A stretch of 56,050 nucleotides of DNA from Candidatus Sodaliphilus aphodohippi (GCA_018065665.1 JAGHSV010000034.1:1-56050), one strand, 5' to 3'; numbered from the stretch's first letter, positions 40,408 to 55,037 are shown. The notes: a model not told the origin generated them from the letters alone. Translations and numbers: made by a program.

Positions 40408-41715
40408 TTAGTCGATTTCCTCGTCGGCCTCGTAACCGCCCATCTCGCGGATGGCGTTCTTCAGCATTACGTACTGCTGGAACAGGTGGTTAACGGGTAC
40501 CTCACCCTGGGTGTAGTCATGCTGCGGGCTCTTCAGGAAGAAGCTCAGGAAGCGCTGAGTGCCAACGCGGCCTGCACGTGCAGCGAGGTCCATCAACAGA
40601 CACAGGTCGAGGCAGAGGGGAGCTGCCAGGATAGAGTCACGGCAGAGGAAGTTGATCTTGATCTGCATGGGGTATCCCATCCAACCGAAGATGTCAATGT
40701 TGTCCCAACCCTCTTTGTTGTCGTTGCGGGGAGGATAGTAGTTGATGCGTACCTTGTGGTAGTAGTCGGTGTACAGGTCGGGCTGCTCGTCGGCAACGAG
40801 GATAGACTCGAGTGTAGAGAGCTTGCTGACCTCTTTTGTACGGAAGTTAGCGGGCTCGTCAAGTACAAGACCGTCGCGGTTACCAAGGATGTTGGTAGAG
40901 AACCAGCCGTTCAGACCGAGCATGCGAGTGCCGATGATGGGAGCGAAACCGCTCTTAACCAGTGTCTGGCCAGTCTTGAAGTCCTTACCGGCGATTGGCA
41001 TCTTAACCTCTTCGCAGAGTTCCCAGATAGCGGGGATGTCAACGGTAGTGTTGGGGGCACCCATGATGAAGGGAGCACCTTCGCGCAGAGCTGCGTAAGC
41101 GTAGCACATTGAGGGGGCGATGTTAGCGGTATCGTTGTCCTTCATTGCCTTCTCAAGGTCGGCCAACTTGTAGTGTACGTCCTTGTTGGGAGCTACATAA
41201 ATCTCGGTAGATGCTGCCCACAGAACAACAACTCGGTCAACGCCAGACTCTTTCTTGAAGTTGCGGATGTCCTCGCGAACCTGTTCCATCATGTCCCAGC
41301 GATCCTTGCAGGTCTTCACGTTGTCACCATCGAGGCGCTTTGCATAGTTCTTGTCAAAAGCGGCCTTGAGGGGCTTGATAGCCATGAGTTCGTCCTTAAC
41401 GGGGTTGATGTCCTTCTCTTTGAGTACCTCGGCGTTGATAGCGCTCTCGTAAGCGTTTGCGGGGTAAACGTCCCAAGCTGCGAAGACGATGTCCTTCAGG
41501 TCAGCGATGGGGGCGATGTCCTTATAGGGTAAATATTTCTTTTCGGCACCACGACCAACACGAATCTTGTCGTACTGAGTCATTGAGCCAACGGGTTTGG
41601 CGAGGCCTTTGCGGGTCATTAAAACACCTGTCATGAAAGTGGTGCTAACTGCACCGAGTCCAACAACCATAATACCGAGTTTTCCGGTAGCTGGTTTTAC
41701 GTTTGAATTTGCCAT
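40408..41715 (-). CDS. ino1: myo-inositol-1-phosphate synthase
   Basis: GLGAVSTT, VLWAASTE, GKDFKTGQT, NILGNRDG, DNKEGWD, CRDSILAAPL. Confidence 0.96.
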   Translation of the reverse strand: MANSNVKPATGKLGIMVVGLGAVSTTFMTGVLMTRKGLAKPVGSMTQYDKIRVGRGAEKKYLPYKDIAPIADLKDIVFAAWDVYPANAYESAINAEVLKEKDINPVKDELMAIKPLKAAFDKNYAKRLDGDNVKTCKDRWDMMEQVREDIRNFKKESGVDRVVVLWAASTEIYVAPNKDVHYKLADLEKAMKDNDTANIAPSMCYAYAALREGAPFIMGAPNTTVDIPAIWELCEEVKMPIAGKDFKTGQTLVKSGFAPIIGTRMLGLNGWFSTNILGNRDGLVLDEPANFRTKEVSKLSTLESILVADEQPDLYTDYYHKVRINYYPPRNDNKEGWDNIDIFGWMGYPMQIKINFLCRDSILAAPLCLDLCLLMDLAARAGRVGTQRFLSFFLKSPQHDYTQGEVPVNHLFQQYVMLKNAIREMGGYEADEEID

Positions 41716-41975: not shown

Positions 41976-43406
41976 TCAATTCTGTTTGCTTGCCGGAAGG
42001 GCATCGATGAGCATGCGGCTCATGTTGTCCTTCAGCGTGCTACGCTCGCAACTGTAATTGTTGGCAAGAATAGCCCAAACCACCTGGGGCTTGTCGGCAG
42101 GATAGTAACCCACAAAACACTGTACGTCGCTCATGCTGCCCGACTTCAGTTTGATGCTGTCGCACAAGACATTGTTACCGAGTACCGACCCTATGCGACG
42201 ACCGGCGCTTGGCATGAGATCGCACAGGCGCAGGGAGTCGGTGCCATATTTGCGTTCAGCCATGTACCGCAGCATCTCGCAGAAGGTACGCACCGAGTTT
42301 TTGTTGGCTCGCGCAAGACCGCTACCGTCCAGCATAAACAAGGCCGAATCGTCAATGCCACGGTCGCGCAACATTTGCTTTACGGCATCGGCACCGGCAT
42401 AGTCAATGCCCATTTCGCCACGCTTGTATGAGCCCTGGCGTGACCCCACTGCACGCAGCAGGGCATGAGTGAACATGTTGTCACTGCGGTCCAGCAGAGA
42501 GGTGATGATGTCGGTAATCACTGGCGAATAGTGGCTCAGCAGGACCGCATGGTCACCTTCACCACTCTCGAAAGTCAACTCCCTGTTTTCAACCTTGATG
42601 CCGGCTTGCATCAGGGCTGCTTCGACCTCAGCCTTCAACATGAGGTCGGGACGCGGGTTGGCTATGGTATAGCTGTGGTTTCCGGGGTTGGTCTCACCGT
42701 AGAGGACGACAGCCGAGTGCCCGTAGTCGAGGCTTGCACTCCAGTTGTTGCGGCTACCGCTGTGCATCATGTTGGTTATCTCGACTCCCGGCACCTGGGG
42801 CGACAGCGTGAGATTGTTGATATTGCCCTGAGGGTCAACGTTGAATTTGACTGTAACCAGGTTGTCGCGGTAGTTAAGACCATGAACGCCCGCACCGTAG
42901 TCCTCGGCAATATCACCGATGTCCCACCAGCTGCTGTATGCGGGATAATTATAGAAAGATGCGTCAACGATAATCCGGCCCTGGATTTCGGTGATGCCGG
43001 CATTCCTTAACGAATCTATGATTTCGCCAATGATATTGTTTTTAGGGAAATACTGGCTGCCCAGTGTGGGGTCACCGTAGCCGGTGATAATGAGGTTACC
43101 CTTAAGTTTGTTCCCATCAATCTCGCCGATGGTGTGGACTACGGTCTCAAAACGGTAGTCCCCGCCCAGCAGTTCAAGGGCGGTGGTCGATGTCACGGTC
43201 TTCATTGTCGATGCCGTGATGACCGACAGGTCAGGGTTGTATGAGGCAATCACGTTGCCGCTGTCAATGCCCATAATCATCACACCCAACGACGCGTGAC
43301 GCATGGTGTTGTCCAGCGCAAAACGGTTAACGGCTTCCTGAGGGGTTATGCCCCATGCTGTAAATGCAATGGCAAACTGCAAGGCAAGCAATGCTATTTT
43401 CTTCAT
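41976..43406 (-). CDS. dacB: D-alanyl-D-alanine carboxypeptidase/endopeptidase (PBP4, S13)
   Basis: ASTMK (SxxK), GDPTLG, SDN (SxN), DGSGL, KSG; start MKKIALL at 43406. Confidence 0.92.
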   Translation of the reverse strand: MKKIALLALQFAIAFTAWGITPQEAVNRFALDNTMRHASLGVMIMGIDSGNVIASYNPDLSVITASTMKTVTSTTALELLGGDYRFETVVHTIGEIDGNKLKGNLIITGYGDPTLGSQYFPKNNIIGEIIDSLRNAGITEIQGRIIVDASFYNYPAYSSWWDIGDIAEDYGAGVHGLNYRDNLVTVKFNVDPQGNINNLTLSPQVPGVEITNMMHSGSRNNWSASLDYGHSAVVLYGETNPGNHSYTIANPRPDLMLKAEVEAALMQAGIKVENRELTFESGEGDHAVLLSHYSPVITDIITSLLDRSDNMFTHALLRAVGSRQGSYKRGEMGIDYAGADAVKQMLRDRGIDDSALFMLDGSGLARANKNSVRTFCEMLRYMAERKYGTDSLRLCDLMPSAGRRIGSVLGNNVLCDSIKLKSGSMSDVQCFVGYYPADKPQVVWAILANNYSCERSTLKDNMSRMLIDALPASKQN

Positions 43407-43413
43407 GTTGCTG

Positions 43414-44037
43414 TCAATATTTGATGGTGAATTCAACGAGGTTGGCGGCAATGCCGTCGGCAAGATTGATGAGCGAGCACAGCGGATAACGGTCGCGTGC
43501 CGTGTTCAGCGAGTTTTTCTCTTCGGGGCTCTGGAACGGCAGGTCCCATGCCGCCATGTGCCAGCGTATGGCAAGCAGGTCCTCCTTGGTGATGTCAAGA
43601 CCGCCCCACAGGGCCATCATGGCCGACTTCTCGCCATGCCCCAGCGGCAGGTTGCTGTAGTCGACGTCCCATCCGGGTTCTTCGGTCCAGATGCCGTTCA
43701 CCTTCACTTTCTTGATGGCTGGCACATAGATGTCGCTCTTGCAGATGTCATGCAGCAGCGACGCGATGATGACACTGTCGCGCGGCAGTTCGGGCTCGAG
43801 GTCGGGGCGCATCTTGATGGTTACCTCGCGCAGTTCGAGCGCGGCGTGGCACACGTTCAGCGAGTGCTGCAGCAGCCCGCCCTCCTCGTTCAGGTGGAAT
43901 CGGGTACTTGCCGGAGCGTTGAAAAAGCGGTTCTTACCATCATCAAGATACTCAATCAAGTCATCAACGCCCTCGCGTCCAGTCGACTTTAGCAGTTCAA
44001 TAAATTCCCTTTTGTTTGCTTCAATTTCGATTTTCAT
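43414..44037 (-). CDS. HD-domain protein (YhaM-like HD)
   Basis: APASTRFH...GGLLQHSLNV, LLHDICK, GHGEKS, AIRWHM. Confidence 0.85.
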   Translation of the reverse strand: MKIEIEANKREFIELLKSTGREGVDDLIEYLDDGKNRFFNAPASTRFHLNEEGGLLQHSLNVCHAALELREVTIKMRPDLEPELPRDSVIIASLLHDICKSDIYVPAIKKVKVNGIWTEEPGWDVDYSNLPLGHGEKSAMMALWGGLDITKEDLLAIRWHMAAWDLPFQSPEEKNSLNTARDRYPLCSLINLADGIAANLVEFTIKY

Positions 44038-44145
44038 ATTGGCAATAATAAGTTTATGTTTAATTCAACCCATGCATATCTAAATGCTGAATCCAAGTGA
44101 CAGAATGTAGTTGAACAAATCTGTCAGGTATTTTCTTTGTTGTTG

Positions 44146-44334
44146 TCATTGTGCACGACCATTTTCTTCCTTAACGCCAATCACGACATAACCACCAGTA
44201 TCTTCAAAGTCATTGGCAAAGGCACAGATTGTGCGATAGATGGTGTCAGGATTCCATCCTTCCTTGTAATCAAGTCTGTTGCTCTCCACTGCCTTGCCGT
44301 TGAGCAGGTCTTCTATATTAATGTGCAATGCCAT
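44146..44334 (-). pseudogene. Truncated AlbA_2/Schlafen-type DNA-binding domain gene remnant
   Basis: [25 protein letters not shown]...GGYVVIGV then stop at codon 63; this family is normally several hundred aa. Confidence 0.75.
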
Positions 44335-44380
44335 AATTTGTTTTTAACTATTTCTACACCACAGCTATATCGTCCAATTG

Positions 44381-44707
44381 TTATTGTTGTCGTTTGTTTT
44401 TTCGCCATTGTTCAAAGTGTCGGCGCTTTTCCAGGTAGTCAAGGTCGCGCTGGTGTCGGTATGCTTCGCGTTCAAACGAGATGTTGCGGTAGGCATTGCC
44501 GCGCATCAGCAACCGTACCAGCCACTCCAGCACATATATAACATAAAACGGCAGATAGCCCAGTTCGCGCATCTGAGCAGTGTGGATTCGTTCGTGGTTG
44601 ACAGCCTCGCTCGACAGGTAGGCACCCGAGCGCACCACCAGCACGCCCAGTACGTTCATGGCCAGAAAGCCTTTTAGCGGAAACCTGTTTGACCTGATAA
44701 TTTTCAC
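44381..44707 (-). CDS. Small conserved hypothetical protein with HExxH motif
   Basis: NHERIHTAQ, AYRNISFEREAY; GTG start at 44707 chosen because TAACTTTG lies at 44713-44720. Confidence 0.7.
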   Translation of the reverse strand: MKIIRSNRFPLKGFLAMNVLGVLVVRSGAYLSSEAVNHERIHTAQMRELGYLPFYVIYVLEWLVRLLMRGNAYRNISFEREAYRHQRDLDYLEKRRHFEQWRKNKRQQ

Positions 44708-44751
44708 GACTGCAAAGTTACTGATTTTTACTCTCCCGTGCAAGACAAGGG

Positions 44752-45288
44752 TTAGAGTTCCAGTATGCGAACCTCGGCGTTCTCCAGTGGTTTTACCATG
44801 CGTGGCGACAACCCGAAGTGGGCTGCAATCAGGTTGCGGGCAAACAGCCCGTGAGTGACGACTACGGCACTGTCGCCATGACAGGTTCGGGCAAGAGCCA
44901 GCAAGGCATCTTTGGCGCGTTGGTAAACAGCGTCCTCGGTCTCGACCGTGTCGGGCGGGAAGACCCATTCCCCGTCATGCAAAAAGCGTTCGCGAGCCTC
45001 GTCAATCGGCATCCCGTTAAATTCGCCCCAGTCGCGTTCACGCAGCAGCGGCATCGGCACAATCGGCAAATGCAGTTTGGAGGCAATGATGCCGGCCGAG
45101 TCAATTGCGCGTTTGAGGTCGCTCGAGATGATTTGGCTACATGCCGCTTTCATCTCTACAAGTCGCTTTGCGGCCTCGGCAACCTGTCTGCGCCCCTCGT
45201 CGGTGAGCGTGCCGGGCAGTTGCCCCTGCAGCACGTGACGGTGGTTCTCCTCGGTCTCGCCGTGGCGAACAATATACAGTGTCGCCAT
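44752..45288 (-). CDS. Histidine phosphatase family protein
   Basis: RHGET, SSDLKRA, LRERDWG, VTHG. Confidence 0.92.
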   Translation of the reverse strand: MATLYIVRHGETEENHRHVLQGQLPGTLTDEGRRQVAEAAKRLVEMKAACSQIISSDLKRAIDSAGIIASKLHLPIVPMPLLRERDWGEFNGMPIDEARERFLHDGEWVFPPDTVETEDAVYQRAKDALLALARTCHGDSAVVVTHGLFARNLIAAHFGLSPRMVKPLENAEVRILEL

Positions 45289-45290
45289 GA

Positions 45291-45815
45291 TTACTTGATC
45301 CAGTAAACGTAGTCGGCCTTGCGCGGAGGTGCTGCCACAGGCCCTTCCTGTGCGCTGTAACCCAGCACGCAGTGCCCTATGCCTTCATACTCGTCCTCGA
45401 TGCCCAGGCTGCGCAGTATCTCGCGTCCCTCGGTGCTCTCGAACTCCTCTTTGGCGCGATGAATCCAGCACGAACCAATGCCCAGGCTATGGGATGCCAG
45501 CATCAGGTTGCCCATCACCAGCGATCCGTCATAGATAAAGGTATTGACATCTTTCTTGGCAAGTACAATCAGTACGACGGGTGCGCCATAGAACGGGTCG
45601 GCAGTCGTGCCCAGCACGTCGGCATTCATGCGTGACAGACGGTCGCGCATCTCTTTGTTGGTAACTGCGATGATGATTGGGGCCTGGCGGTTGCGTCCTG
45701 TTGGGGCATAGGTGCCGGCCTTAACGATTTCTTCGATCAGTTCCTGTGGCACGGGGCGGTCGCTGAAGTTGCGAACGCTGCGGCGCGTAATCATGTTTTC
45801 AATAACGCTATTCAT
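45291..45815 (-). CDS. Nitroreductase family protein
   Basis: RRSVRNF, APTGRN.Q, LGIGSCWI. Confidence 0.92.
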   Translation of the reverse strand: MNSVIENMITRRSVRNFSDRPVPQELIEEIVKAGTYAPTGRNRQAPIIIAVTNKEMRDRLSRMNADVLGTTADPFYGAPVVLIVLAKKDVNTFIYDGSLVMGNLMLASHSLGIGSCWIHRAKEEFESTEGREILRSLGIEDEYEGIGHCVLGYSAQEGPVAAPPRKADYVYWIK

Positions 45816-45821
45816 AAATTA

Positions 45822-46454
45822 TTATTTGTTTTGGGTTTCGATAAAATCTTTCAGGGGTTGGAACCAGTCGGCCTGCTCGGTGACGTGGAACGAGGGGATG
45901 CCGACTGCACGTGCGCCCTCGATGTTGCGCATGCTGTCGTCGATAAAAATGGTCTCGCTGCGTTCCATGTTGCCCAATGCCAGTACTTTCTCGAAGATGG
46001 CGGCATCGGGTTTGTATTCGTGCAGTTCGTTGCTGCAGTACAGGGTGTCGAAGTAGTGATGGATGCTGTGGCCGTGTCCGTCAAAGTTGTCGCTGCGCGC
46101 CCAGTTCTGCACAAATGCGTTTGTGTTGCTGAGCATGCACACGTTGTAGCGTTCCTTGAACCACAGCAGGTGCTGCAGGCGTTCCAGCGGCACGTCGCGC
46201 ACAAATCCGAGCCAAGCGTTTTGCACTTCCTTATAAGTCAGCTGCCGGTGGCATTCCTGCTCCAGCTGGTCGATGAACTCATCCTCGGTGATTAGCCCTT
46301 TTTCCAGTTCAAGGAAAAAGCCGCGCTGCCCGTGGTCGCCGGTAAAGTCGCGTACGTTGACAAAACCCAGTTGCTCAAACCGTTTGATGGGTTCGCTGAG
46401 TGGATTTTGGCTGAAGATGACGCCACCGAAGTCAAACAATAGATTCTTTATCAT
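45822..46454 (-). CDS. HAD family phosphatase (YihX-like)
   Basis: FDFGGV, LSNTN, KPD..IF, FIDD. Confidence 0.9.
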   Translation of the reverse strand: MIKNLLFDFGGVIFSQNPLSEPIKRFEQLGFVNVRDFTGDHGQRGFFLELEKGLITEDEFIDQLEQECHRQLTYKEVQNAWLGFVRDVPLERLQHLLWFKERYNVCMLSNTNAFVQNWARSDNFDGHGHSIHHYFDTLYCSNELHEYKPDAAIFEKVLALGNMERSETIFIDDSMRNIEGARAVGIPSFHVTEQADWFQPLKDFIETQNK

Positions 46455-47128
46455 AACGAGTAATTGCTTATTTTGTGGCCAGAGGCGGCCTCAAAGTGAT
46501 ACTTTACAATGCCGAGGTCGACATGGGTATAGCCAACCAGCGAAAATCGCGCCGTGGCGGCAACTTTACCCGAGGGTTCCAACGTGAAACGGAACTTTTG
46601 CTGGTTGACGGCGGTTGGTGCCAGCAGGGCAGCCTTGACGCCATTGACAAACCACTCGGGGCTGTCGGCAGTGACGTTGCTCACGTCACCGGCTTTTTTG
46701 ATTTTGTGGGTAGTGCCGGCTGTGCTGCCGTAGCCGATTGAAATCACAGCCACAACTTTCTCGCCCTCGGCGAGGTTGAATGCACCGGGTATCTTGCTGT
46801 AGGTCAGCCCCACCCAACAGGTGTTGAGACCCATCATCTGTGCTTCGAGCACCAGGTGCTCGCCATAGTATCCGACACGCTCGTCCAGGTCTTCGCTGCG
46901 TTGTCCGGCCATGACGATGTAGTTGGTCACACCGCTGAACTTGCCGTAGCGCGCCATGCGGCACGGGGAAGCCTGCGGTTCGTTGGTGACCAGTTGGATG
47001 TGGAGGCGGCCATTGGCGTTGCAGCGGTCAATCTGCTGTTGCAGTGCGGATATAGTCGCGCCGTCCAGCGGTTTGCCGGTGTAACTGCGCACCGAGTGCC
47101 TCGATTCTATGGCTTCAAGCAGGGTCAT
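46451..47128 (-). CDS. Nitroreductase family protein (two-domain type)
   Basis: RHSVRSY, GLNTCWV, APTAVNQQ, DLGIVKYHFE; ATG at 47128. Confidence 0.88.
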   Translation of the reverse strand: MTLLEAIESRHSVRSYTGKPLDGATISALQQQIDRCNANGRLHIQLVTNEPQASPCRMARYGKFSGVTNYIVMAGQRSEDLDERVGYYGEHLVLEAQMMGLNTCWVGLTYSKIPGAFNLAEGEKVVAVISIGYGSTAGTTHKIKKAGDVSNVTADSPEWFVNGVKAALLAPTAVNQQKFRFTLEPSGKVAATARFSLVGYTHVDLGIVKYHFEAASGHKISNYSL

Positions 47129-47226
47129 GGGTTTACTTGCCAATTTTGATGAGTTTGTTTTTTTCCCGTTTTTAAATATCAAACAAATTTACAAATAATT
47201 TCCGACATGAGGGGATGATTACCGGG

Positions 47227-48360
47227 CTATAAAACATATTCAAGATAGTTTTGGGGAGTGACAACATGGGTTTCTCCGGGGTTGTAGGCATTGATGAACG
47301 ACACGGGTAGCGTTGTTTTTGCTTTTTTCGGATTCCATTTTAACTCAAAAGCCGCGATGTGGCCGTTCGCCTCTTCGATATAGTCAATCTCTTTTTTGTC
47401 GGTCGTTCGCCAGAAGTAGGAGTTGACTGCTCGGCCGGCATAGCGATTGGCCTTGATTCTTTCGGCTATAAAGAAATTTTCCCATAATGCCCCAGTATCC
47501 TGTCTGTATTCAAGGGGGGCAAAATTCCTGATGACGGCGTTACGGATGCCGTTATCATAGAAATATATCTTTTTGCCTTTTGTGAGCTCGGTCCTGATGT
47601 TACGGTTGTAGCTGTTCAGGGCAAACACAACATAGCATTTCTCAAGCAGGTCTATATATTTCTCAACAGTTTTCCTGTCAATACCGACGGTCTTTGCCAG
47701 CTCGTTGTACGAAACCACACTTCCAACCTGCAGCGCCAGTACCACAACCAGTTTGTTCAGTACCGACGTGCGTCGCAAGCCGTCTATCTCCAGAATGTCT
47801 TTGTATAGGTAGCTATCGGCAAGTTCGGTCAGCATCTCTTGCGGTTCGTCACCCAGTAAAACTGCTGGATATGAGCCATAAATCAATCGTGATTCAAACG
47901 TTTCATTAACCCCAATCAGACCCTGGTTGTCATAGATCTCCTTTGTTGAGAGAGGAAACAGGTGCAGAGTTGATTTTCGACCCGTCAACGGTTCGTTGAT
48001 GCGATTGCGCAGTTCAAAAGCCGATGAACCGGTAACAAGAAGGGTGACATCGGGCATATTGTCAACAATAAGCTTAAGTGTCAGGCCAATGTCATTCACC
48101 CTTTGCGCCTCGTCAATAACAACCGTCTTATTAGAGCCGATGAGCAACTCCAGATTGTGCAGGTTTGTGGTCTGTACTGCGTCGCGCACTTCTTGACGGT
48201 CACAGTTAAGCCACAAAACTTTTGCATCGTCGCTGGCAAATCGGTCAATATACTGATGCAGCAGGGTGGTTTTCCCCACTTGCCTTGCTCCAATCAGCAG
48301 AAGGGCTTTCCCGGGCTTTGCCTTTTGGCTGATTGTCATTAATAAATCTCGCTGAATCAT
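47227..48360 (-). CDS. AAA ATPase with DUF4143-type C-terminal domain
   Basis: GARQVGKT, IDEAQR, TGSS, EPLTGR, YFYDNG, GALWEN, YFWRT..KEID; ATG at 48360. Confidence 0.9.
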   Translation of the reverse strand: MIQRDLLMTISQKAKPGKALLLIGARQVGKTTLLHQYIDRFASDDAKVLWLNCDRQEVRDAVQTTNLHNLELLIGSNKTVVIDEAQRVNDIGLTLKLIVDNMPDVTLLVTGSSAFELRNRINEPLTGRKSTLHLFPLSTKEIYDNQGLIGVNETFESRLIYGSYPAVLLGDEPQEMLTELADSYLYKDILEIDGLRRTSVLNKLVVVLALQVGSVVSYNELAKTVGIDRKTVEKYIDLLEKCYVVFALNSYNRNIRTELTKGKKIYFYDNGIRNAVIRNFAPLEYRQDTGALWENFFIAERIKANRYAGRAVNSYFWRTTDKKEIDYIEEANGHIAAFELKWNPKKAKTTLPVSFINAYNPGETHVVTPQNYLEYVL

Positions 48361-48444
48361 AATTGAATCAATGAATTGTTTTTCGGTGGCAAAATTAGTG
48401 CTTTTATTTTGTTTAGCAAGCAAAAAAACAAGAATAATTTGCTC

Positions 48445-48510
48445 GAATTCCCAAAAATCACCAATATTTTGGGAATATAATCCCAAAAATCATTAATATT
48501 TTGGGAATTC
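48445..48510. repeat. Two tandem palindromic units upstream of the ATPase
   Basis: TCCCAAAAATCA-NN-AATATTTTGGGAAT present twice. Confidence 0.85.
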
Positions 48511-48566
48511 ATGGTCGATAGGCTATAGAAACTACATAGGTCTTATGCAGCCCTTATCTCTTCTTG

Positions 48567-48965
48567 TCAGTTGATGGAGATGAGGTGGATTTCGAAAATC
48601 AGGGTTGAGTAGGGCGGGATGCCGGGGCAGCCGCGTTTGCCGTAGGCTTTGTCCCAGGGGATGTAGACGGTCCACCGGTCGCCCTTGCGCATCTTGCACA
48701 GCGCTGCACTGAAACCGTTGATGAGGTCGGCAACGCGGAATGCCTCGGGGCAGTTGCGCTGCCACGAGTCGTCAAACACCTTGCCGCTGATGAGCGAGCC
48801 TCGATAGTGGCAGGTGACCACGCTGCGCATGTTGGCGGTTTTGTCGCCCTCGCCGTTTTCCTCGCCGCGGTAGTATATGCCGCCACCAATGAGTTCGACG
48901 CCTTCTTGCCGGGCGATGTCGGCCATGAACTGCTCGTTGCGGGCCTTATATTCCTCTTTGTTCAT
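48567..48965 (-). CDS. FKBP-type peptidyl-prolyl isomerase
   Basis: HYRGSLISGKVFD, LINGF, YIPWDKAYG, IPPYSTLIFEI. Confidence 0.93.
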   Translation of the reverse strand: MNKEEYKARNEQFMADIARQEGVELIGGGIYYRGEENGEGDKTANMRSVVTCHYRGSLISGKVFDDSWQRNCPEAFRVADLINGFSAALCKMRKGDRWTVYIPWDKAYGKRGCPGIPPYSTLIFEIHLISIN

Positions 48966-48967
48966 AG

Positions 48968-50035
48968 TTACTTGTATTGTCGGATGCGTACGTCAATCTG
49001 GTCGTTCTTCAGCAGCTCGGGAACCCGATTGATGTCGGTCTGGGCATAGTGGTAGGGGAAGAGCACCTTGGGTTTGACGATGCGGGCAGCATTGGCCACC
49101 TGCTCGGGAGTCATGGTGTAGGGCAGGTTGCACGGCAGGAATGCCACGTCGATGTCGTTGATGTCGGCCATCTCGGGGATGTTCTCGGTGTCGCCGGCTA
49201 TATAGATGCGCATGCCGTCGATGGTCAGCACAAAGCCGTTGTCGCGTCCCCGCGGGTGGAACTGCTGCTTGTCGGCACCGGTGTTGTAGGCCGGCACGGC
49301 GTCAATCTTGACGTCGCCGACAGTCAGCGAGTCGCCGTTGGCCATCACGGTGGCGTCGGTCACCCCTTTCAGCGCGGTGGCGCAGTTGGCATTGGCAACC
49401 AGTCGTGTGCCGTCCTTTGCCAGTTGTCTAACCGCGTTGGCGTCGAGGTGGTCGCCATGTTCATGGGTAATCAGGATTATGTCGGCACGGGGCATCGTGC
49501 TGTAGTCGGTAACCGGCTTGACGGCGGTGGTCACGGGATCGATATATATCCACTTGCCGTCGAAGTTGATAGAGAGCGTGCCGTGCTTGATGGCATCGAT
49601 ACGGACCAACTTTCCTCCCGGTGTGGCAAAGATGTCGGTCTCGATGGTGGTCACCGGCCGCTTGGCGTCGTTCCATCCGATGATGCCCGACTCCAGTTCT
49701 ACGATGTCGAAACCCCGCGCCGCCAGCACTTGGGCGGCTTTCTTGCTGCGTCTGCCGCTACGGCAGTACAGCGCGACTGTCTTGCCGGTGGGCAGTAGAG
49801 CCATGGCGCGTTTCTCAAAGTCGGTCTGCTTGACGTCGATGTTGATGGCGCCGTCAATGTGTCCCTCGGCATATTCCTCGGGGGTGCGCACGTCCAGCCT
49901 GACAATGTTGTTGTCGGCGATGGTTTTCTCGAACTCGGTAACGTCAACGCTCTTGAACGCCGCGTTTTGGGCATTGCAACCAACGAGGGCGCACAGCGAG
50001 GCAAACAGTCCCATAACCAGTATCCTTATTTTCAT
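48968..50035 (-). CDS. Rhodanese plus metallo-beta-lactamase-fold fusion, probably exported
   Basis: N-terminal LVGC signal; DVRTPEEY..GHI.GA and YCRSGRRS (rhodanese); THEHGDH, AGDT, PYHY (MBL). Confidence 0.88.
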   Translation of the reverse strand: MKIRILVMGLFASLCALVGCNAQNAAFKSVDVTEFEKTIADNNIVRLDVRTPEEYAEGHIDGAINIDVKQTDFEKRAMALLPTGKTVALYCRSGRRSKKAAQVLAARGFDIVELESGIIGWNDAKRPVTTIETDIFATPGGKLVRIDAIKHGTLSINFDGKWIYIDPVTTAVKPVTDYSTMPRADIILITHEHGDHLDANAVRQLAKDGTRLVANANCATALKGVTDATVMANGDSLTVGDVKIDAVPAYNTGADKQQFHPRGRDNGFVLTIDGMRIYIAGDTENIPEMADINDIDVAFLPCNLPYTMTPEQVANAARIVKPKVLFPYHYAQTDINRVPELLKNDQIDVRIRQYK

Positions 50036-50052
50036 ATTAGAATATTTAACTC

Positions 50053-50766
50053 TTACATATTGATGCAGTCGGGCACCTGGGTGATGGACGTGATCATGCA
50101 GGGATGGGTCTGGGCGTCTTCGTCTGCGGTCCAGCCTTTGCCTTTAATCCACAGCACCTTGCATCCGAGGCTCTCGGCAGGCACGATATCCTTGGTGATG
50201 CTGTCGCCAACGACAAGCACGTCGGCCGCCTCCATCTCGCGCGCGTCAACGCCCAGGCGGAACAGTGTGGGGTTGGGTTTGCGTACGCCCACAACGGCGC
50301 TCTCGATTACGCCCTTGAAATAGCGGCGAAGGTCAAAGTCGCGCAGCACGCTGTCGACGTTGCCATAGAAGTTGCTGACCAGCATCATCGGGTAGCGGCT
50401 GCTCAGGGTTTCCAGTATGGGGCGCGCCTCCTCGACACACTCGCGCGCGGCGTTATAGCAGTATTGTGCGATTGACTCGCAAAGCGACTGCGGAGCCTCG
50501 GCAATGATGCCGTTATCGACCAGGTTCCCCAGCTCGATGGCCATCTTCTTGCGCAGCAGGTCAAGGAACGTGTCGTTGGGCAGAATGTGCCTCACCCGCG
50601 CCAGTTCGCGCTCGGCAAAGACATAGCAGTCGCGGAACTGCTCCTTGGTGATGTTGACGCCGGCGTTGAGATAGCCCTTCCATATCACTTCGCTCCAGTG
50701 GACGGCGCGGCTGTCGATGGTGCCGCCGTAGTCAAAGATGATGCCCTTGATGTTGATTTTGTCCAT
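50053..50766 (-). CDS. HAD family hydrolase (inositol-lipid cluster)
   Basis: FDYGGTID, VSNFYGN, RKPNP, VGDSITKDI. Confidence 0.88.
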   Translation of the reverse strand: MDKINIKGIIFDYGGTIDSRAVHWSEVIWKGYLNAGVNITKEQFRDCYVFAERELARVRHILPNDTFLDLLRKKMAIELGNLVDNGIIAEAPQSLCESIAQYCYNAARECVEEARPILETLSSRYPMMLVSNFYGNVDSVLRDFDLRRYFKGVIESAVVGVRKPNPTLFRLGVDAREMEAADVLVVGDSITKDIVPAESLGCKVLWIKGKGWTADEDAQTHPCMITSITQVPDCINM

Positions 50767-50778
50767 ATCCTGATGTTG

Positions 50779-51738
50779 TCAAATTGTTTTCTTCATATCG
50801 GAGCAGATGTGCTCGTGACGTATCACCATGTAAACGAGCATGATATTGAGCACCACAAGTTCAAACACAAAGTAGAGCCAGGGCATCTTGATGATGACCG
50901 AGATGAACATGGCAATGATGCGGGTGTTGAACGAGAGCATGTTGGTGTACTTCATCAGCGGCAGGCTGCGTGCGCGGAAACGGTCGCGGAAGTCCTGTGC
51001 CACCCCGTCCTCGCCGTAGCGCTCGTGCAGCGCGGCGCGCAGTTGCTGCATGCGCGGTGTCAGGCGTTCCTGGCTGGCAGTATAACCGCGGTAGAAGAAC
51101 AGGGTGAACTTCTTGAAGAAGTCCTTGCCCCACGACAGCGTGTTGTAGGTCTCGGTCAGTTGGGTTGTGCTGTCGAGCTCGCTGCCGTCCTTGCCTTTGA
51201 GGAAGTACAGGTGGAACTGTCGGTAGTAGTCGGCCATGGCGGCTTGCTTGGCATGGCACAGCCCGGCAGCCACGGCAAGTGCCCAGATGGCCCACTGGTG
51301 CTGGCCAAAGTAGTTGCCAATCAGGTTGTCGCCAAAGTCGATTTCCCTCATCACGATGGCAATGTAGATGGCAATGAACCAGAAGTCGCCGCTGACGCCG
51401 TCCAGTATGCGCCCGATGCGTGAGTACTGCTGGGTAAGTCGCGCCAGCTGGCCGTCGGCGCTGTCGTAGGTGTTGGCCCAGATGATGAGGAAGATGCCCA
51501 GGTAGTTGAGCCACAGGTAGGGGCTTGCCCCAAAGTAGAGCAGAATGCCGCCACCGACGCCAAGAAATATTGACGCGATGGTCACCACGTTGGGGGATAT
51601 GCCCAGCTTGGCAAACAGTATTGCCCAGGCAAAGCCCAGCGGGCGGTAGAATGCAAGGTCGATGTGCTCCTCGGTGTCCATCGATTTGAGGGACGCCTTG
51701 TATTGTTGTTTTAAATCACTGAAAGCCATTTTCTTCAA
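50779..51738 (-). CDS. CDP-alcohol phosphatidyltransferase
   Basis: PNVVT and DSADGQLAR...SRIGRILDGVSGD signature; TM helices. Confidence 0.92.
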   Translation of the reverse strand: MKKMAFSDLKQQYKASLKSMDTEEHIDLAFYRPLGFAWAILFAKLGISPNVVTIASIFLGVGGGILLYFGASPYLWLNYLGIFLIIWANTYDSADGQLARLTQQYSRIGRILDGVSGDFWFIAIYIAIVMREIDFGDNLIGNYFGQHQWAIWALAVAAGLCHAKQAAMADYYRQFHLYFLKGKDGSELDSTTQLTETYNTLSWGKDFFKKFTLFFYRGYTASQERLTPRMQQLRAALHERYGEDGVAQDFRDRFRARSLPLMKYTNMLSFNTRIIAMFISVIIKMPWLYFVFELVVLNIMLVYMVIRHEHICSDMKKTI

Positions 51739-52607
51739 CCTTTGTTTTTGTATTCCTTGATGATTCCCAGAATGGCTTTTGCGATGTGTGGTGCAGCCTC
51801 GTTGCGGCAGGGCGCGAAACTGGGCCAGTCGTTGAAGTCGATGATGCGTATGCTGCCGTCCTCGGCAACGATGCAGTCTCCGCCATAAACAACGACGTTC
51901 AGTTCCTCGGCGGCGCGGTTGCAGATATCCTTGAGGTAGTCTTCGTCAAACTTGAAGCCCTTTGAGATGCCGTTGATTTGCTCCAGGCCATATTTGCTGT
52001 GGCCTTCGTCAAAGGGATAGAACCAGAAGAAGTAGGGCGAGCCCTTGATGCCGTAGAACTTGATGAGGTCGCCAACGAGGTGAACGTTGATGACGGCGCG
52101 GTTGATGCCGCGGTAGAAGTACTCCTGCAGCACTTCCTGTGCCTCCTCGGCGTGGCGGACATAGGACACGTCCTCCTTGTGCATGGCGTGGAAGTCGCCG
52201 CGTTTGATCCAGCAGCTCTGGAAGCCGGCTTCCTTGATGCGTTCCTTCACGTTCTCGTTGGTGTTGACGATGAGGCTGTCGGGGTATGGGATGCCGTTCC
52301 CCAGCAGTATGCGTGTCATGCGTTCGCGTGTGCAGTTCTCGATGCCGTAGCCCGAGTTGATGACGAGGCGGCCCTGGTCCTCCAGTTTCTGGAGGTTCTC
52401 GATTGACTCGCGCTCGCGGCACATGCTCAGTATGATGTTTTCTTCGACTCCGTTCTTGTTGAACTGTTCCTCGTTGTAGATGTTGACGAGGCATCCGCGC
52501 TTGCGCAGTTCGTCGGCAGTCGCGTTGAATATCGCGGTGTCGTTGCCGATGTGGTTGGGCGAATATGCGCCGGCTCTCATTATGCCGGCAATGGTGATTT
52601 CTGCCAT
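51735..52607 (-). CDS. Uncharacterised ATP-grasp fold protein
   Basis: GIPYP, WIKR, GDLIKFYG, YGGDCIV...IIDFNDWPSF; ATG at 52607; 4-nt overlap with the next gene. Confidence 0.7.
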   Translation of the reverse strand: MAEITIAGIMRAGAYSPNHIGNDTAIFNATADELRKRGCLVNIYNEEQFNKNGVEENIILSMCRERESIENLQKLEDQGRLVINSGYGIENCTRERMTRILLGNGIPYPDSLIVNTNENVKERIKEAGFQSCWIKRGDFHAMHKEDVSYVRHAEEAQEVLQEYFYRGINRAVINVHLVGDLIKFYGIKGSPYFFWFYPFDEGHSKYGLEQINGISKGFKFDEDYLKDICNRAAEELNVVVYGGDCIVAEDGSIRIIDFNDWPSFAPCRNEAAPHIAKAILGIIKEYKNKG

Positions 52608-52626: not shown

Positions 52627-53328
52627 TTATTTCTCTTTAATGAATTCCTGTGCCACGGCGATATCGCTCGCGTGGTCAACGTCAATGATTTTGTCGATGG
52701 AGAACGCCTTGAGGTTGAAACCTGCCTCGACGAGTGCGCGCTGGAAGTTGCGCATGCGCGAGATGCCGTTCTCGATGCAGTGTTCCAGCACGGGGAACGC
52801 CTTGTCGCTCATGGCGTAGATGCCGCCCGACACATAGCGTGCGCCGGGGAATGCCGTGTCGTGGAATCCGGTGATTTTCATCTGTTCATCGACGCTGACA
52901 TAGAGGGGCTTCTCGTCCTCGATGAACGGGGTTACCGCCCACATGCCGTCGCTGCTGTCGTCGGCCTCGAAAGCCTCGATGTAGCGTGCGAAGTCGGGCT
53001 CGCGGAAGATGGTGTCGACTGTCGTGAGGCAGAACTTGCCGCGCGGCAGCACCTTGCTCAGTTCATAGAAACTGTGCATCGAGCTGGGTGTTGTCTTGAC
53101 CACCACCTTGAAGGGGATGCCCGGGTCGTATGCCTCGAGGGCTTCGCGCACCTCGGTCATGAACTCGTTGATGATGATGGTGACGCTCTGGGCGTTGCAC
53201 CGTTTGAAGATGTTGATGAGGCGTTTGACCATGGGCTCGCCGTTGAGTTCAACGAGCGGCTTTGGTTTGGCAACGCCTTCCTGTGCGAGTCTCGAGCCCT
53301 CGCCGGCTGCTATTATTGCGTAGTTCAT
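52627..53328 (-). CDS. NTP transferase (sugar/inositol-phosphate nucleotidyltransferase family)
   Basis: IIAAGEGSRL....PKPL, terminal DVD. Confidence 0.9.
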   Translation of the reverse strand: MNYAIIAAGEGSRLAQEGVAKPKPLVELNGEPMVKRLINIFKRCNAQSVTIIINEFMTEVREALEAYDPGIPFKVVVKTTPSSMHSFYELSKVLPRGKFCLTTVDTIFREPDFARYIEAFEADDSSDGMWAVTPFIEDEKPLYVSVDEQMKITGFHDTAFPGARYVSGGIYAMSDKAFPVLEHCIENGISRMRNFQRALVEAGFNLKAFSIDKIIDVDHASDIAVAQEFIKEK

Positions 53329-53346: not shown

Positions 53347-54453
53347 TTATGCATCCTTGGTCAAGTCGAGCACGACGTTGTCCTTGCCGCGGTCAAAGTA
53401 CATCTTCTTCAGCGGGTTGGCGTTCGCCTCGTCGTGGCGTTCGCGGTTGCGGCAGATGTCGATGGCGGTGTAGATTGCCTGTCGCAGCGAGTTCTCGTTG
53501 GCGACGTTCTGGCCCGCGATGTCATATCCGGTGCCGTGGTCGGGGCTGGTGCGCACGTATGGCAGTCCGGCGGTGAAGTTCACGCCGTTGTCCATCGACA
53601 GCGCCTTGAACGCCGTCAGGCCCTGATCGTGATACATCGCCAGCACACCGTCAAAGTGACGGTAACTCTCGCTGCCAAAGAACCCGTCGGCTGCAAAGGG
53701 ACCGAAGCACAGCAGGTGCTCATCGTCGTATGACTTCTGGATTGCAGGTGCAATCACGTCTTTCTCCTCGTTGCCCAGCAGACCGTTCTCGCCCGAGTGG
53801 GGATTCAGGGCCAGCACGGCGATGCGTGGACGGCCGATGCCGAAGTCGCGTTTCAGCGACTTGTTGAACAGGCGCAGTTTCTTGCGGATATTGTCCTCGG
53901 TGATGGCCGGTGCCACCTGTGCTATTGGCAGGTGGGTGGTCACGAGCGCCACACGCAGGCTGTCGTTGCACAGCACCATCAGGGCTTTGTCGCCCTCTTC
54001 GCCCAGGCATGTCTCGAGATACTCGGTGTGGCCCGGGAACTTGAACTCATCGCTCTGGATAGTCTCTTTGTTGATGGGTGCGGTCACCATCACGTCGATG
54101 CGACCGCTCTTCAGGTCACTCACGGCTGCCTCCAGAGCCTGGAATGCCGCCGCACCCGCCTGCTTGTCGGGCTGGCCGAGTTCAACCTTGATTTCGGCCT
54201 TGGGGTCTCCCACCTCGACCAGGTTGACGGCATTGTCGTTGAACGGCTTGTCAGTTCCAACGATGTGGACATTGAACTGCTGGATTTTGAGGGCTTTGCG
54301 ATGATATGCCATAATCTTGCTCGACCCATATACCACCGGGGTGCACAGTTCGCAAAACTCGGGGCATGAAAGTGTTTTCAATATCACTTCATAGCCAATT
54401 CCGTTGGTGTCCCCTTGGGTAATGCCAACGCGTATCTTTCTTTCTTTTGCCAT
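53347..54453 (-). CDS. pdxA: 4-hydroxythreonine-4-phosphate dehydrogenase
   Basis: GDTNGIG, TAPINK, GHTEYL, LNPHSGE, MYHDQG, RTSPDHGT. Confidence 0.96.
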   Translation of the reverse strand: MAKERKIRVGITQGDTNGIGYEVILKTLSCPEFCELCTPVVYGSSKIMAYHRKALKIQQFNVHIVGTDKPFNDNAVNLVEVGDPKAEIKVELGQPDKQAGAAAFQALEAAVSDLKSGRIDVMVTAPINKETIQSDEFKFPGHTEYLETCLGEEGDKALMVLCNDSLRVALVTTHLPIAQVAPAITEDNIRKKLRLFNKSLKRDFGIGRPRIAVLALNPHSGENGLLGNEEKDVIAPAIQKSYDDEHLLCFGPFAADGFFGSESYRHFDGVLAMYHDQGLTAFKALSMDNGVNFTAGLPYVRTSPDHGTGYDIAGQNVANENSLRQAIYTAIDICRNRERHDEANANPLKKMYFDRGKDNVVLDLTKDA

Positions 54454-54640: not shown

Positions 54641-54791
54641 TGACTCAAGAGCCTCTCCCAACCCTCCCCTAAAGGGAAGGGCTAACTATGAGGGTGTTAC
54701 AGCAATTCAGGTGACTCAGGAGCCTCTCCCAACCCTCCCCTAAAGGGAAGGGCTAACTATGAGGGTGTTACATTGACTCGGATGACTCAGG
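54641..54791 (+). repeat. 71-bp-period tandem REP-like repeat (two copies plus partial)
   Basis: TGACTCA at 54641, 54712 and 54783; identical core AGCCTCTCCCAACCCTCCCCTAAAGGGAAGGGCTAACTATGAGGGTGTTACA twice. Confidence 0.92.
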
Positions 54792-54985: not shown

Positions 54986-55036
54986 GTAACGCCCTCATAG
55001 TTAGCCCTTCCCTTTAGGGGAGGGTTGGGAGAGGCT
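54986..55036 (-). repeat. Inverted third copy of the same REP-like core
   Basis: Reverse complement of the 54650-54700 core with one mismatch; abuts the stop codon at 55038. Confidence 0.92.
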
Positions 55037-55037
55037 T

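Follow-up and report, generated by a model that had tools for sequence, protein, structure and literature searches.

A 'putative alternative' gene cluster for inositol-lipid synthesis has been described in Bacteroides (Phocaeicola) vulgatus and Prevotella. It consists of a nucleotidyltransferase (NTP; BVU_RS13095), a CDP-alcohol transferase (BVU_RS13105) and a HAD-superfamily protein (BVU_RS13115), and in the accompanying scheme the product of myo-inositol-phosphate synthase (MIPS/Ino1) passes straight to CDP-inositol without a kinase (PMC9246714). The pathway is unconfirmed in that report, which records that B. vulgatus and P. veroralis, having this cluster only, make phospho-inositol dihydroceramide (PI-DHC). 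Here we examine a 56,050-nucleotide stretch of DNA from Candidatus Sodaliphilus aphodohippi (GCA_018065665.1 JAGHSV010000034.1:1-56050; hereafter the window), which has the same three genes in the same order, MIPS nearby and no BT_1523-type PIP synthase (the best match to NF052561 in its 87% complete genome, G000, scored 26.6 bits against a cut-off of 350), and which, unlike the published scheme, includes a gene for an ATP-grasp protein, P0001. P0001 is a genuine core enzyme of a widespread putative pathway. It is predicted to be an inositol or inositol-phosphate kinase, which we consider probable, and more specifically a kinase of free myo-inositol that would open a Kennedy-type route, for which we judge the case to be evenly poised.

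By locus numbering, a single gene lies between BVU_RS13095 and BVU_RS13105 in B. vulgatus, and we infer that it belongs to the same ATP-grasp family. The terms 'grasp', 'RimK' and 'RS13100' do not occur in the main text of PMC9246714, whose Figure 6 may draw the gene unlabelled, 'BVU_RS13100' and 'ATP-grasp' do not occur in its eight supplements, and the gene is unmentioned in the text of its preprint; a 2023 review repeats the scheme minus this gene (PMC10191378). A literature search covering mostly titles and the beginnings of abstracts, with few subscription papers, returned none that assigns a function to the family.

We propose that P0001 would convert free inositol and ATP to inositol monophosphate, that the neighbouring NTP would convert the latter to CDP-inositol, and that phospho-inositol would then be transferred to dihydroceramide or diacylglycerol, completing a full Kennedy-type route. 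In species with MIPS, D-inositol 3-phosphate (Ins3P) would first be dephosphorylated, by the HAD protein or an inositol monophosphatase, and then re-phosphorylated, most simply at D-1, which is our proposed reason why a kinase is kept alongside MIPS; where a species has no MIPS, this enzyme would instead serve to salvage inositol that has been imported. Retention beside MIPS is explained in this way only if the NTP does not use the MIPS product directly, and hence a switch from D-3 to D-1 would follow. Overall, D-1 is a possible if doubtful ring position, and D-3 is an unlikely one. Known free myo-inositol kinases, such as Thermococcus TK2285 and maize lpa3, have a ribokinase fold and carry out the reaction predicted for P0001, inositol plus ATP to inositol monophosphate. 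They are described as unrelated to the inositol phosphate (IP) kinase families (PMC8024741). The Rhodothermus marinus IPCT/BEPIS route shares the predicted CDP-inositol intermediate; its operon, unlike the loci described here, holds MIPS, IPCT and BEPIS and no kinase (as cited in PMC4587543).

The ATP-grasp gene is a core member of the NTP/CDP-alcohol transferase/HAD cassette. Among 300 Bacteroidales genomes at least 90% complete, searched with a profile threshold of 1e-5, 47 matched, 40 of them better than 1e-80 (the carriers) and seven no better than 1e-11, which places the family in 40 of the 300 genomes; carriers are related and not independent, and the co-occurrence counts are descriptive. 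The matching NTP subfamily was present in all 40 carriers and in one other genome only (G066); 39 carriers have the HAD subfamily, for which a single weaker paralogue also turned up. Bacteroidales-type MIPS was found in 46 genomes (37 carriers and nine non-carriers), and a 38th carrier has another MIPS. The preliminary description had suggested co-occurrence with these two genes across Bacteroidales as a check; it is near-perfect for the NTP (40/40, four of them fused), and for MIPS it stands at 38/40. Fusions of the NTP to the ATP-grasp domain make up seven of the nine long homologues scanned. Eight of the nine genomes with MIPS only have the rival BT_1523-type PIP synthase, and in the ninth MIPS lies at a contig end; the BT_1523-type synthase is also present in 6/40 carriers. 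Beyond the order, a phylum sample of 300 genomes yielded 16 further carriers, 13 of them outside Bacteroidales, and the 14 loci from other classes hold the CDP-alcohol transferase (14), the HAD gene (14), MIPS (14, all adjacent, as it is in 31/40 order loci) and the NTP (13). A distant profile led to 80 metagenome loci: one or more cassette genes accompany the ATP-grasp gene in 74, another five contain the aminotransferase that belongs to the extended cassette described below, and only L231 is without a recognised neighbour; homologues of one high-GC metagenome locus are named Gemmatimonadales. In a family search around genome G072, 5/5 genomes were carriers. We rejected a role as a purely accessory salvage enzyme: 37 genomes of the order retain the gene although they have MIPS, and its partner NTP almost never occurs alone.

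The genome with the NTP alone, G066, encodes an NTP fused to a CDP-alcohol transferase lacking its first 93 profile positions (L263:620-1897) and gave no ATP-grasp, HAD or MIPS match; the fusion is either a deleted cassette or an assembly artefact.

Free inositol is the favoured substrate because it would be common to MIPS-positive and MIPS-less cells, and Tannerellaceae provide both. Among 104 genomes of this family, the gene was found in 70 and MIPS in 57 (both in 37, the gene only in 33, MIPS only in 20, neither in 14). At least 97% completeness was recorded for 15 of the 33 MIPS-less carriers, two are single-contig, and a second MIPS model gave no match in the five checked (5/5). The 19 MIPS-less loci fetched have the CDP-alcohol transferase (19/19), the HAD gene (19/19), the NTP (18/19) and no MIPS, and, independently, supplementary Table 5 of PMC9246714 shows P. 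distasonis and P. chinchillae as having all three genes of the cluster but lacking MIPS. The sources of one ATP-grasp homologue, 58% identical (locus L238), give its organism as Tannerella forsythia, and that genome gave no match to MIPS, inositol monophosphatase or the BT_1523-type synthase. Labelling of T. forsythia (14C and D6) has been reported to show that its lipid inositol comes from the medium only and that the label enters only two mono-phospho-inositol dihydroceramides; the same report describes no candidate found for an inositol kinase or a cytidylyltransferase (PMC4587543). The ATP-grasp/NTP cassette may offer T. forsythia candidates for both. B. thetaiotaomicron, which uses the other route, takes up outside inositol in very minor amount only (PMC9246714). 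Of the two roles suggested in the preliminary description, salvage of free inositol is therefore supported by the 33 of 70 Tannerellaceae carriers that lack MIPS and by the T. forsythia labelling, and synthesis of a further-phosphorylated lipid is weakened, since only mono-phospho-inositol lipids took up the label.

One single-contig MIPS-less genome combines the cassette with a BT_1523-like PIP synthase (305 bits; G614:C1:1584635-1585288), a combination that would fit a D-3 kinase.

The AlphaFold model of P0001 has a mean pLDDT of 96.5 and, as modelled, the protein has an ATP-grasp superfamily fold: ATP-grasp enzymes dominate the best 50 rows of the VIA structural search, with Z of 11.8-21.4 across most of the chain, and its designation as an ATP-grasp enzyme stands. 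A family profile of 117 sequences, searched against PDB sequences, placed six ITPK sequences at ranks 2-7 (E 2e-4 to 1e-3), with LysX, ArgX and GshB below them at E 0.09 or worse, and the ranking was unchanged with a second, more diverse profile (A3). P0001 shares with ITPK1 and other ITPKs (PF05770; 2QB5, 1Z2N, 7PUP) and with PPIP5K the fold, an Arg, a Lys and a D-x-N-x-x-P-[SG]-[FY] motif. It differs from them in its low identity (13-19%), a shorter hinge loop, its bacterial origin and its place in a lipid head-group cassette, not in inositol polyphosphate signalling. By the sequence tests run, P0001 is not a member of the ITPK1 (PF05770) family: no Pfam family matches P0001, PF05770 matches 4/117 members weakly (best E 0.0036), and in 41 carrier genomes none reached its cut-off (0/41), the family gene being matched only in G198 (E 0.0016). 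Its placement outside that family follows from scores below the Pfam cut-off together with the apparent absence of two ITPK phosphate-binding residues, the fold being slightly nearer to RimK/LysX within a small spread of Z. An ITPK1 orthologue making inositol polyphosphates was accordingly rejected. In the protein atlas, the clusters matched were all either without a name or labelled 'ATP-grasp'.

The residue pattern nonetheless points to a kinase. Near-invariant positions in the 117-sequence alignment are R11, S16, D23, R94, K135, D146, H176, K183, D244, D257, N259, D260 and P262-S263-F264, and they include the ATP-grasp metal and ATP residues K135, D244, D257 and N259. R94 is kept in 113/117 sequences, K183 in 116/117 (Arg in 1/117) and D257 in 115/117, with Glu in none (0/117), and R94, K183 and D257-x-N259 hold in 56 genome-derived, 19 MIPS-less Tannerellaceae and 120 Gemmatimonadota-type proteins. 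At these positions the Entamoeba ITPK has Arg, Lys and D-V-N-V-F-P-S-Y, and the ligase PsnB has Lys, Arg and E-L-N. The segment D257-F-N-D-W-P-S-F aligns with DVNVFPSY, DLNYLPSF and DINAFPGY, so that the ITPK metal motif is present; R94 aligns with the Entamoeba Arg, and K183 falls in the column of the PsnB Arg, which is Lys in the Entamoeba ITPK. Both the ITPK-type Lys (the position of HsITPK1 K199) and an N-terminal nucleotide-site Arg are thus found in the family. In the eight RimK-like Bacteroidales outgroup proteins (Pfam confirmed three of them as RimK or RLAN-RimK), the residues in or next to those columns, where aligned, are Lys, Arg and Glu, with Glu at the 257 column in 5/5. All three catalytic positions are, in these alignments, ITPK-like, and the ligase residues are not kept. 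The kinase-like pattern of the preliminary description therefore holds at these positions, and membership of the ITPK1 family does not. All the motifs it quoted are present (GIPYP at 105, WIKR at 133, GGD at 242, IIDFNDWPSF at 255 and HLVGDLIKFYG at 176). Its comparison of the last of these with the ITPK H-x(5)-K-V-[YF] motif survives for the Lys, which is in register, and fails for the His: the spacing is H-x6-K, and H176 lies in the hinge aromatic column (Phe in 5/6 aligned outgroup proteins), where PsnB and RimK-like proteins have their Q-E-[YFL] hinge.

Several observations weigh against a free-inositol kinase, and a first group of them bears on ligases. RimK (Z 22.1, rmsd 3.0, 253 aligned) and LysX (21.7) head the structural ranking; Ddl (20.3), PPIP5K2 (20.2) and human ITPK1, in 14th place (20.2, rmsd 3.2, 263 aligned), stand lower within a small spread of Z, and Foldseek gave ligases as its top rows, with no ITPK among the matches listed. 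PsnB is the top PDB sequence match to the family profile (E 7e-7), Pfam RimK matches 11/117 members compared with 4/117 for Ins134_P3_kin, all weakly, and the nearest proteins within Bacteroidales genomes are RimK and RLAN-RimK. In RLAN-RimK proteins, too, the Asn is followed by Asp (N-D-x-P motif), and D-x-N also occurs in some non-kinase ATP-grasp proteins, such as CDC123, which tempers the motif argument. Whole-fold scores from the model lean to ligases and do not separate kinase from ligase chemistry; the preliminary description had named best structural matches to amino-acid ligases with an intact carboxylate-binding site as grounds for refuting it, and half of this holds, since the ligases come out ahead although P0001 keeps neither the Arg of their carboxylate site nor E-x-N.

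A rival reading is that P0001, as a RimK-like ligase forming an amide or an ester, modifies a lipid precursor or the head group, by aminoacylation for instance, and that its kinase-like residues are convergent. RimK, LysX and ArgX are the top structural matches, and RimK/LysX/ArgX/PsnB (PF08443, TIGR00768) resemble P0001 in whole fold (Z 21-22), size and hinge loop length and are the nearest sequence outgroup of the family. MptN, rimK_fam and LysX are also its best NCBIfam matches, at scores of 23-33 bits against cut-offs of 143-350 (31 bits against 143.4 for TIGR00768, 23.5 against 275.6 for LysX_arch). The ligases' N-terminal Lys, D-x-R Arg and E-x-N are all replaced, by R94, K183 and D257-x-N, throughout the family. 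In 11/14 distant loci the cassette also has genes for a class-III aminotransferase and for a Gfo/Idh/MocA dehydrogenase, from which an amine could come; these two genes occur in 0/40 order loci and 0/19 Tannerellaceae loci, the reported T. forsythia lipids are plain phospho-inositol (PMC4587543), and fusion to the NTP fits a step just before the nucleotidyltransferase. We consider a ligase improbable.

Among the known kinases, free inositol is reported to be a substrate for none of the four families of IP kinases (PMC8024741), which also counts against the free-inositol assignment. The pocket of P0001 appears poorer in basic residues than that of ITPK1, in a manner that would fit free inositol. 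By sequence register only K199 of the ITPK phosphate contacts is kept, with D146 (115/117) in place of H167 and F196/Y197 in place of R212 (Arg in just 5/117 at 196 and 3/117 at 197); the D146/H167 register relies on what we take to be the Lys-to-His spacing in ITPK. Near-invariant basic residues number seven and acidic ones five. H167, K199 and R212 are described as the most conserved phosphate contacts of ITPK (PMC6900528; for general ITPK context, see PMC7614388), and the replacements of H167 and R212 would therefore fit a less charged substrate.

Alternatively, an ITPK-like inositol-monophosphate kinase, perhaps active on free inositol as well, could add a temporary second phosphate, taking Ins3P to inositol 1,3-bisphosphate (Ins(1,3)P2). 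Either CDP-inositol-phosphate or a PIP-type lipid would follow, and the HAD protein would take off its extra phosphate. I(1)P1 and I(3)P1 are both substrates of ITPK1, and in Lokiarchaea ITPK genes are neighbours of MIPS genes, a genomic link that resembles that of the P0001 family (PMC6900528). Retention of the HAD gene whether or not MIPS is present (19/19 MIPS-less loci) fits this second-phosphate role better and departs from what a pure Ins3P phosphatase would predict, and G254, the sole carrier without a HAD match, has a PgpA-type phosphatase inserted beside the ATP-grasp gene. R11, which is invariant, and R64 (107/117) may form a distal phosphate site; R64 is Gln in 120/120 Gemmatimonadota-type homologues and in 11/56 genome loci, and equivalents of ITPK H167 and R212 are apparently absent. 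The 33 MIPS-less Tannerellaceae carriers would need a second kinase or a double activity, and no bis-phosphorylated lipid was among those labelled in T. forsythia (PMC4587543). On balance, we regard a second-phosphate kinase as unlikely.

Further reservations about a free-inositol kinase concern its partners and its MIPS-less carriers. The NTP is a predicted inositol-phosphate cytidylyltransferase; its profile matches 4jd0 over positions 3-224 and the inositol-1-phosphate cytidylyltransferase 2xme, among many sugar-phosphate nucleotidyltransferases. For the CDP-alcohol transferase, AF2299, CEPT1, CHPT1 and IPCT/DIPPS rank above PIP synthases, and in 55 homologous frames (loci L081-L120, L141-L154) its fourth motif Asp is Gly in 49, Asp in three, Glu in two and Thr in one, usually with Asp or Asn one residue later. 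Both assignments are predictions. In 43/50 HAD sequences (seven unmatched) motif I reads D-[YF]-G-[GA]-T and has no second Asp; H23-W24 and E52 are invariant. The MIPS-less genomes cluster in related genera and are not independent, none of the loci fetched held a recognised inositol transporter, and T. forsythia has other CDP-alcohol transferases, leaving room for another kinase or a direct route.

In some distant loci the cassette is extended by the class-III aminotransferase, the Gfo/Idh/MocA dehydrogenase (top NCBIfam match iolG, well below cut-off), an LPG_synthase_TM protein and often MlaEFD (11/14 loci); such loci come from other classes within the phylum (L142-L154) and from high-GC soil DNA (L173 among them). 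The extended cassette suggests an amino-inositol lipid variant. A kinase of a different polyol or amino-cyclitol, or a non-catalytic protein, would make of the cassette lipid something other than phospho-inositol in at least some lineages. It is in keeping with this that the high-GC soil loci (Gemmatimonadales, as judged from homologues) have the aminotransferase and dehydrogenase without adjacent MIPS, that the transferase lacks its fourth Asp in 52/55 loci and that the whole pathway is putative (PMC9246714). The adjacency of MIPS in the order and other-class loci and the PI-DHC of B. vulgatus and P. veroralis point the other way, as do the metal and ATP ligands, all of which are near-invariant. 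A different substrate, or none, is in our view the least probable of these alternatives.

If P0001 is a free-inositol kinase, a single gene would close two gaps in the literature, that of the inositol kinase in T. forsythia (PMC4587543) and that in the chemistry of the second inositol-lipid route, which is widespread among gut Bacteroidales (PMC9246714). Capsule and fitness of B. thetaiotaomicron are affected by inositol lipids (PMC9246714), and gut and oral symbionts could in this way pull host or dietary inositol into their membranes. The activity would be new for the ATP-grasp fold and would give studies of where ITPK1 came from a bacterial point of comparison. The most complete version of our proposal is that an ATP-grasp free-inositol kinase supplies the missing first Kennedy step, that T. 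forsythia and many Parabacteroides thereby make sphingolipids resembling those of the host, using inositol scavenged from it, that the MIPS product is reset to the eukaryote-type D-1 form, and that the family is a RimK-derived branch near the origin of ITPK and PPIP5K; as a whole we hold this tentatively, somewhat short of an even chance.

Coordinates of the cassette and associated genes in the window
Feature	Position	Strand	Remarks
ATP-grasp protein P0001, candidate myo-inositol kinase	51735..52607	-	290 aa, ATG start, TGA stop
Nucleotidyltransferase (NTP), predicted CTP:inositol-phosphate cytidylyltransferase	52627..53328	-	233 aa; Pfam NTP_transf_3 5e-12
CDP-alcohol phosphotransferase	50779..51738	-	316-319 aa (start TTG 51738 or ATG 51729); Pfam PF01066; Gly for fourth motif Asp
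HAD-superfamily hydrolase	50053..50766	-	237 aa; motif I D-Y-G-G-T, without second Asp
Myo-inositol-phosphate synthase (MIPS/Ino1)	40408..41715	-	435 aa; Pfam PF07994 1.5e-99 and PF01658
pdxA	53347..54453	-	18 nt upstream of nucleotidyltransferase gene

The reading frame of P0001 and the 19 nt that separate it from the nucleotidyltransferase stop are as first described. The 4-nt overlap with the CDP-alcohol transferase holds with the TTG start of the latter and becomes a 5-nt gap with the ATG start. The frame is not a chance one, given its 5557 homologous clusters, the confident model and the presence of the gene in 24/24 sampled genomes of the same genus; close homologues with names belong to Muribaculaceae. 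The designation of the locus as an inositol-lipid operon is right as to the NTP, CDP-alcohol transferase and HAD cluster with MIPS on the same contig, and needs correction as to MIPS, which lies outside the operon, approximately 8.3 kb past the HAD gene and beyond ten unrelated genes. Among the loci of 80 close relatives, MIPS is inside the 6-kb flank in 39 and beside the HAD gene in many. The intervening minus-strand genes (41976-50035) encode DacB, an HD-like protein, a histidine phosphatase, two nitroreductases, a HAD protein, an AAA_14 ATPase, an FKBP, a rhodanese-MBL fusion and one unknown protein. pdxA is a common neighbour in gut Bacteroidales and is missing from distant loci, for which reason we rejected it as a pathway member; it is probably a passenger. 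Upstream of pdxA, a palindromic element of approximately 50 bp, resembling repetitive extragenic palindromic (REP) sequences, was seen by eye three times (~54649-54701, ~54720-54772 and, inverted, ~54987-55037).

The cassette also varies in its arrangement. A split form, with only the ATP-grasp and CDP-alcohol transferase genes within long flanks, occurs in L013-L015, L026, L028, L038 and L044, and further split loci are L045, L058, L059 and L063. In L099, L110 and L113 (genomes G254, G017 and G149), the cassette is interrupted by BT-type PIP route genes. ATP-grasp paralogues stand in tandem in G398, G468, L165 and L186, and P0223, a protein of 691 residues from a cluster of 54, is a fusion with a PAS-histidine kinase module in front of the ATP-grasp domain.

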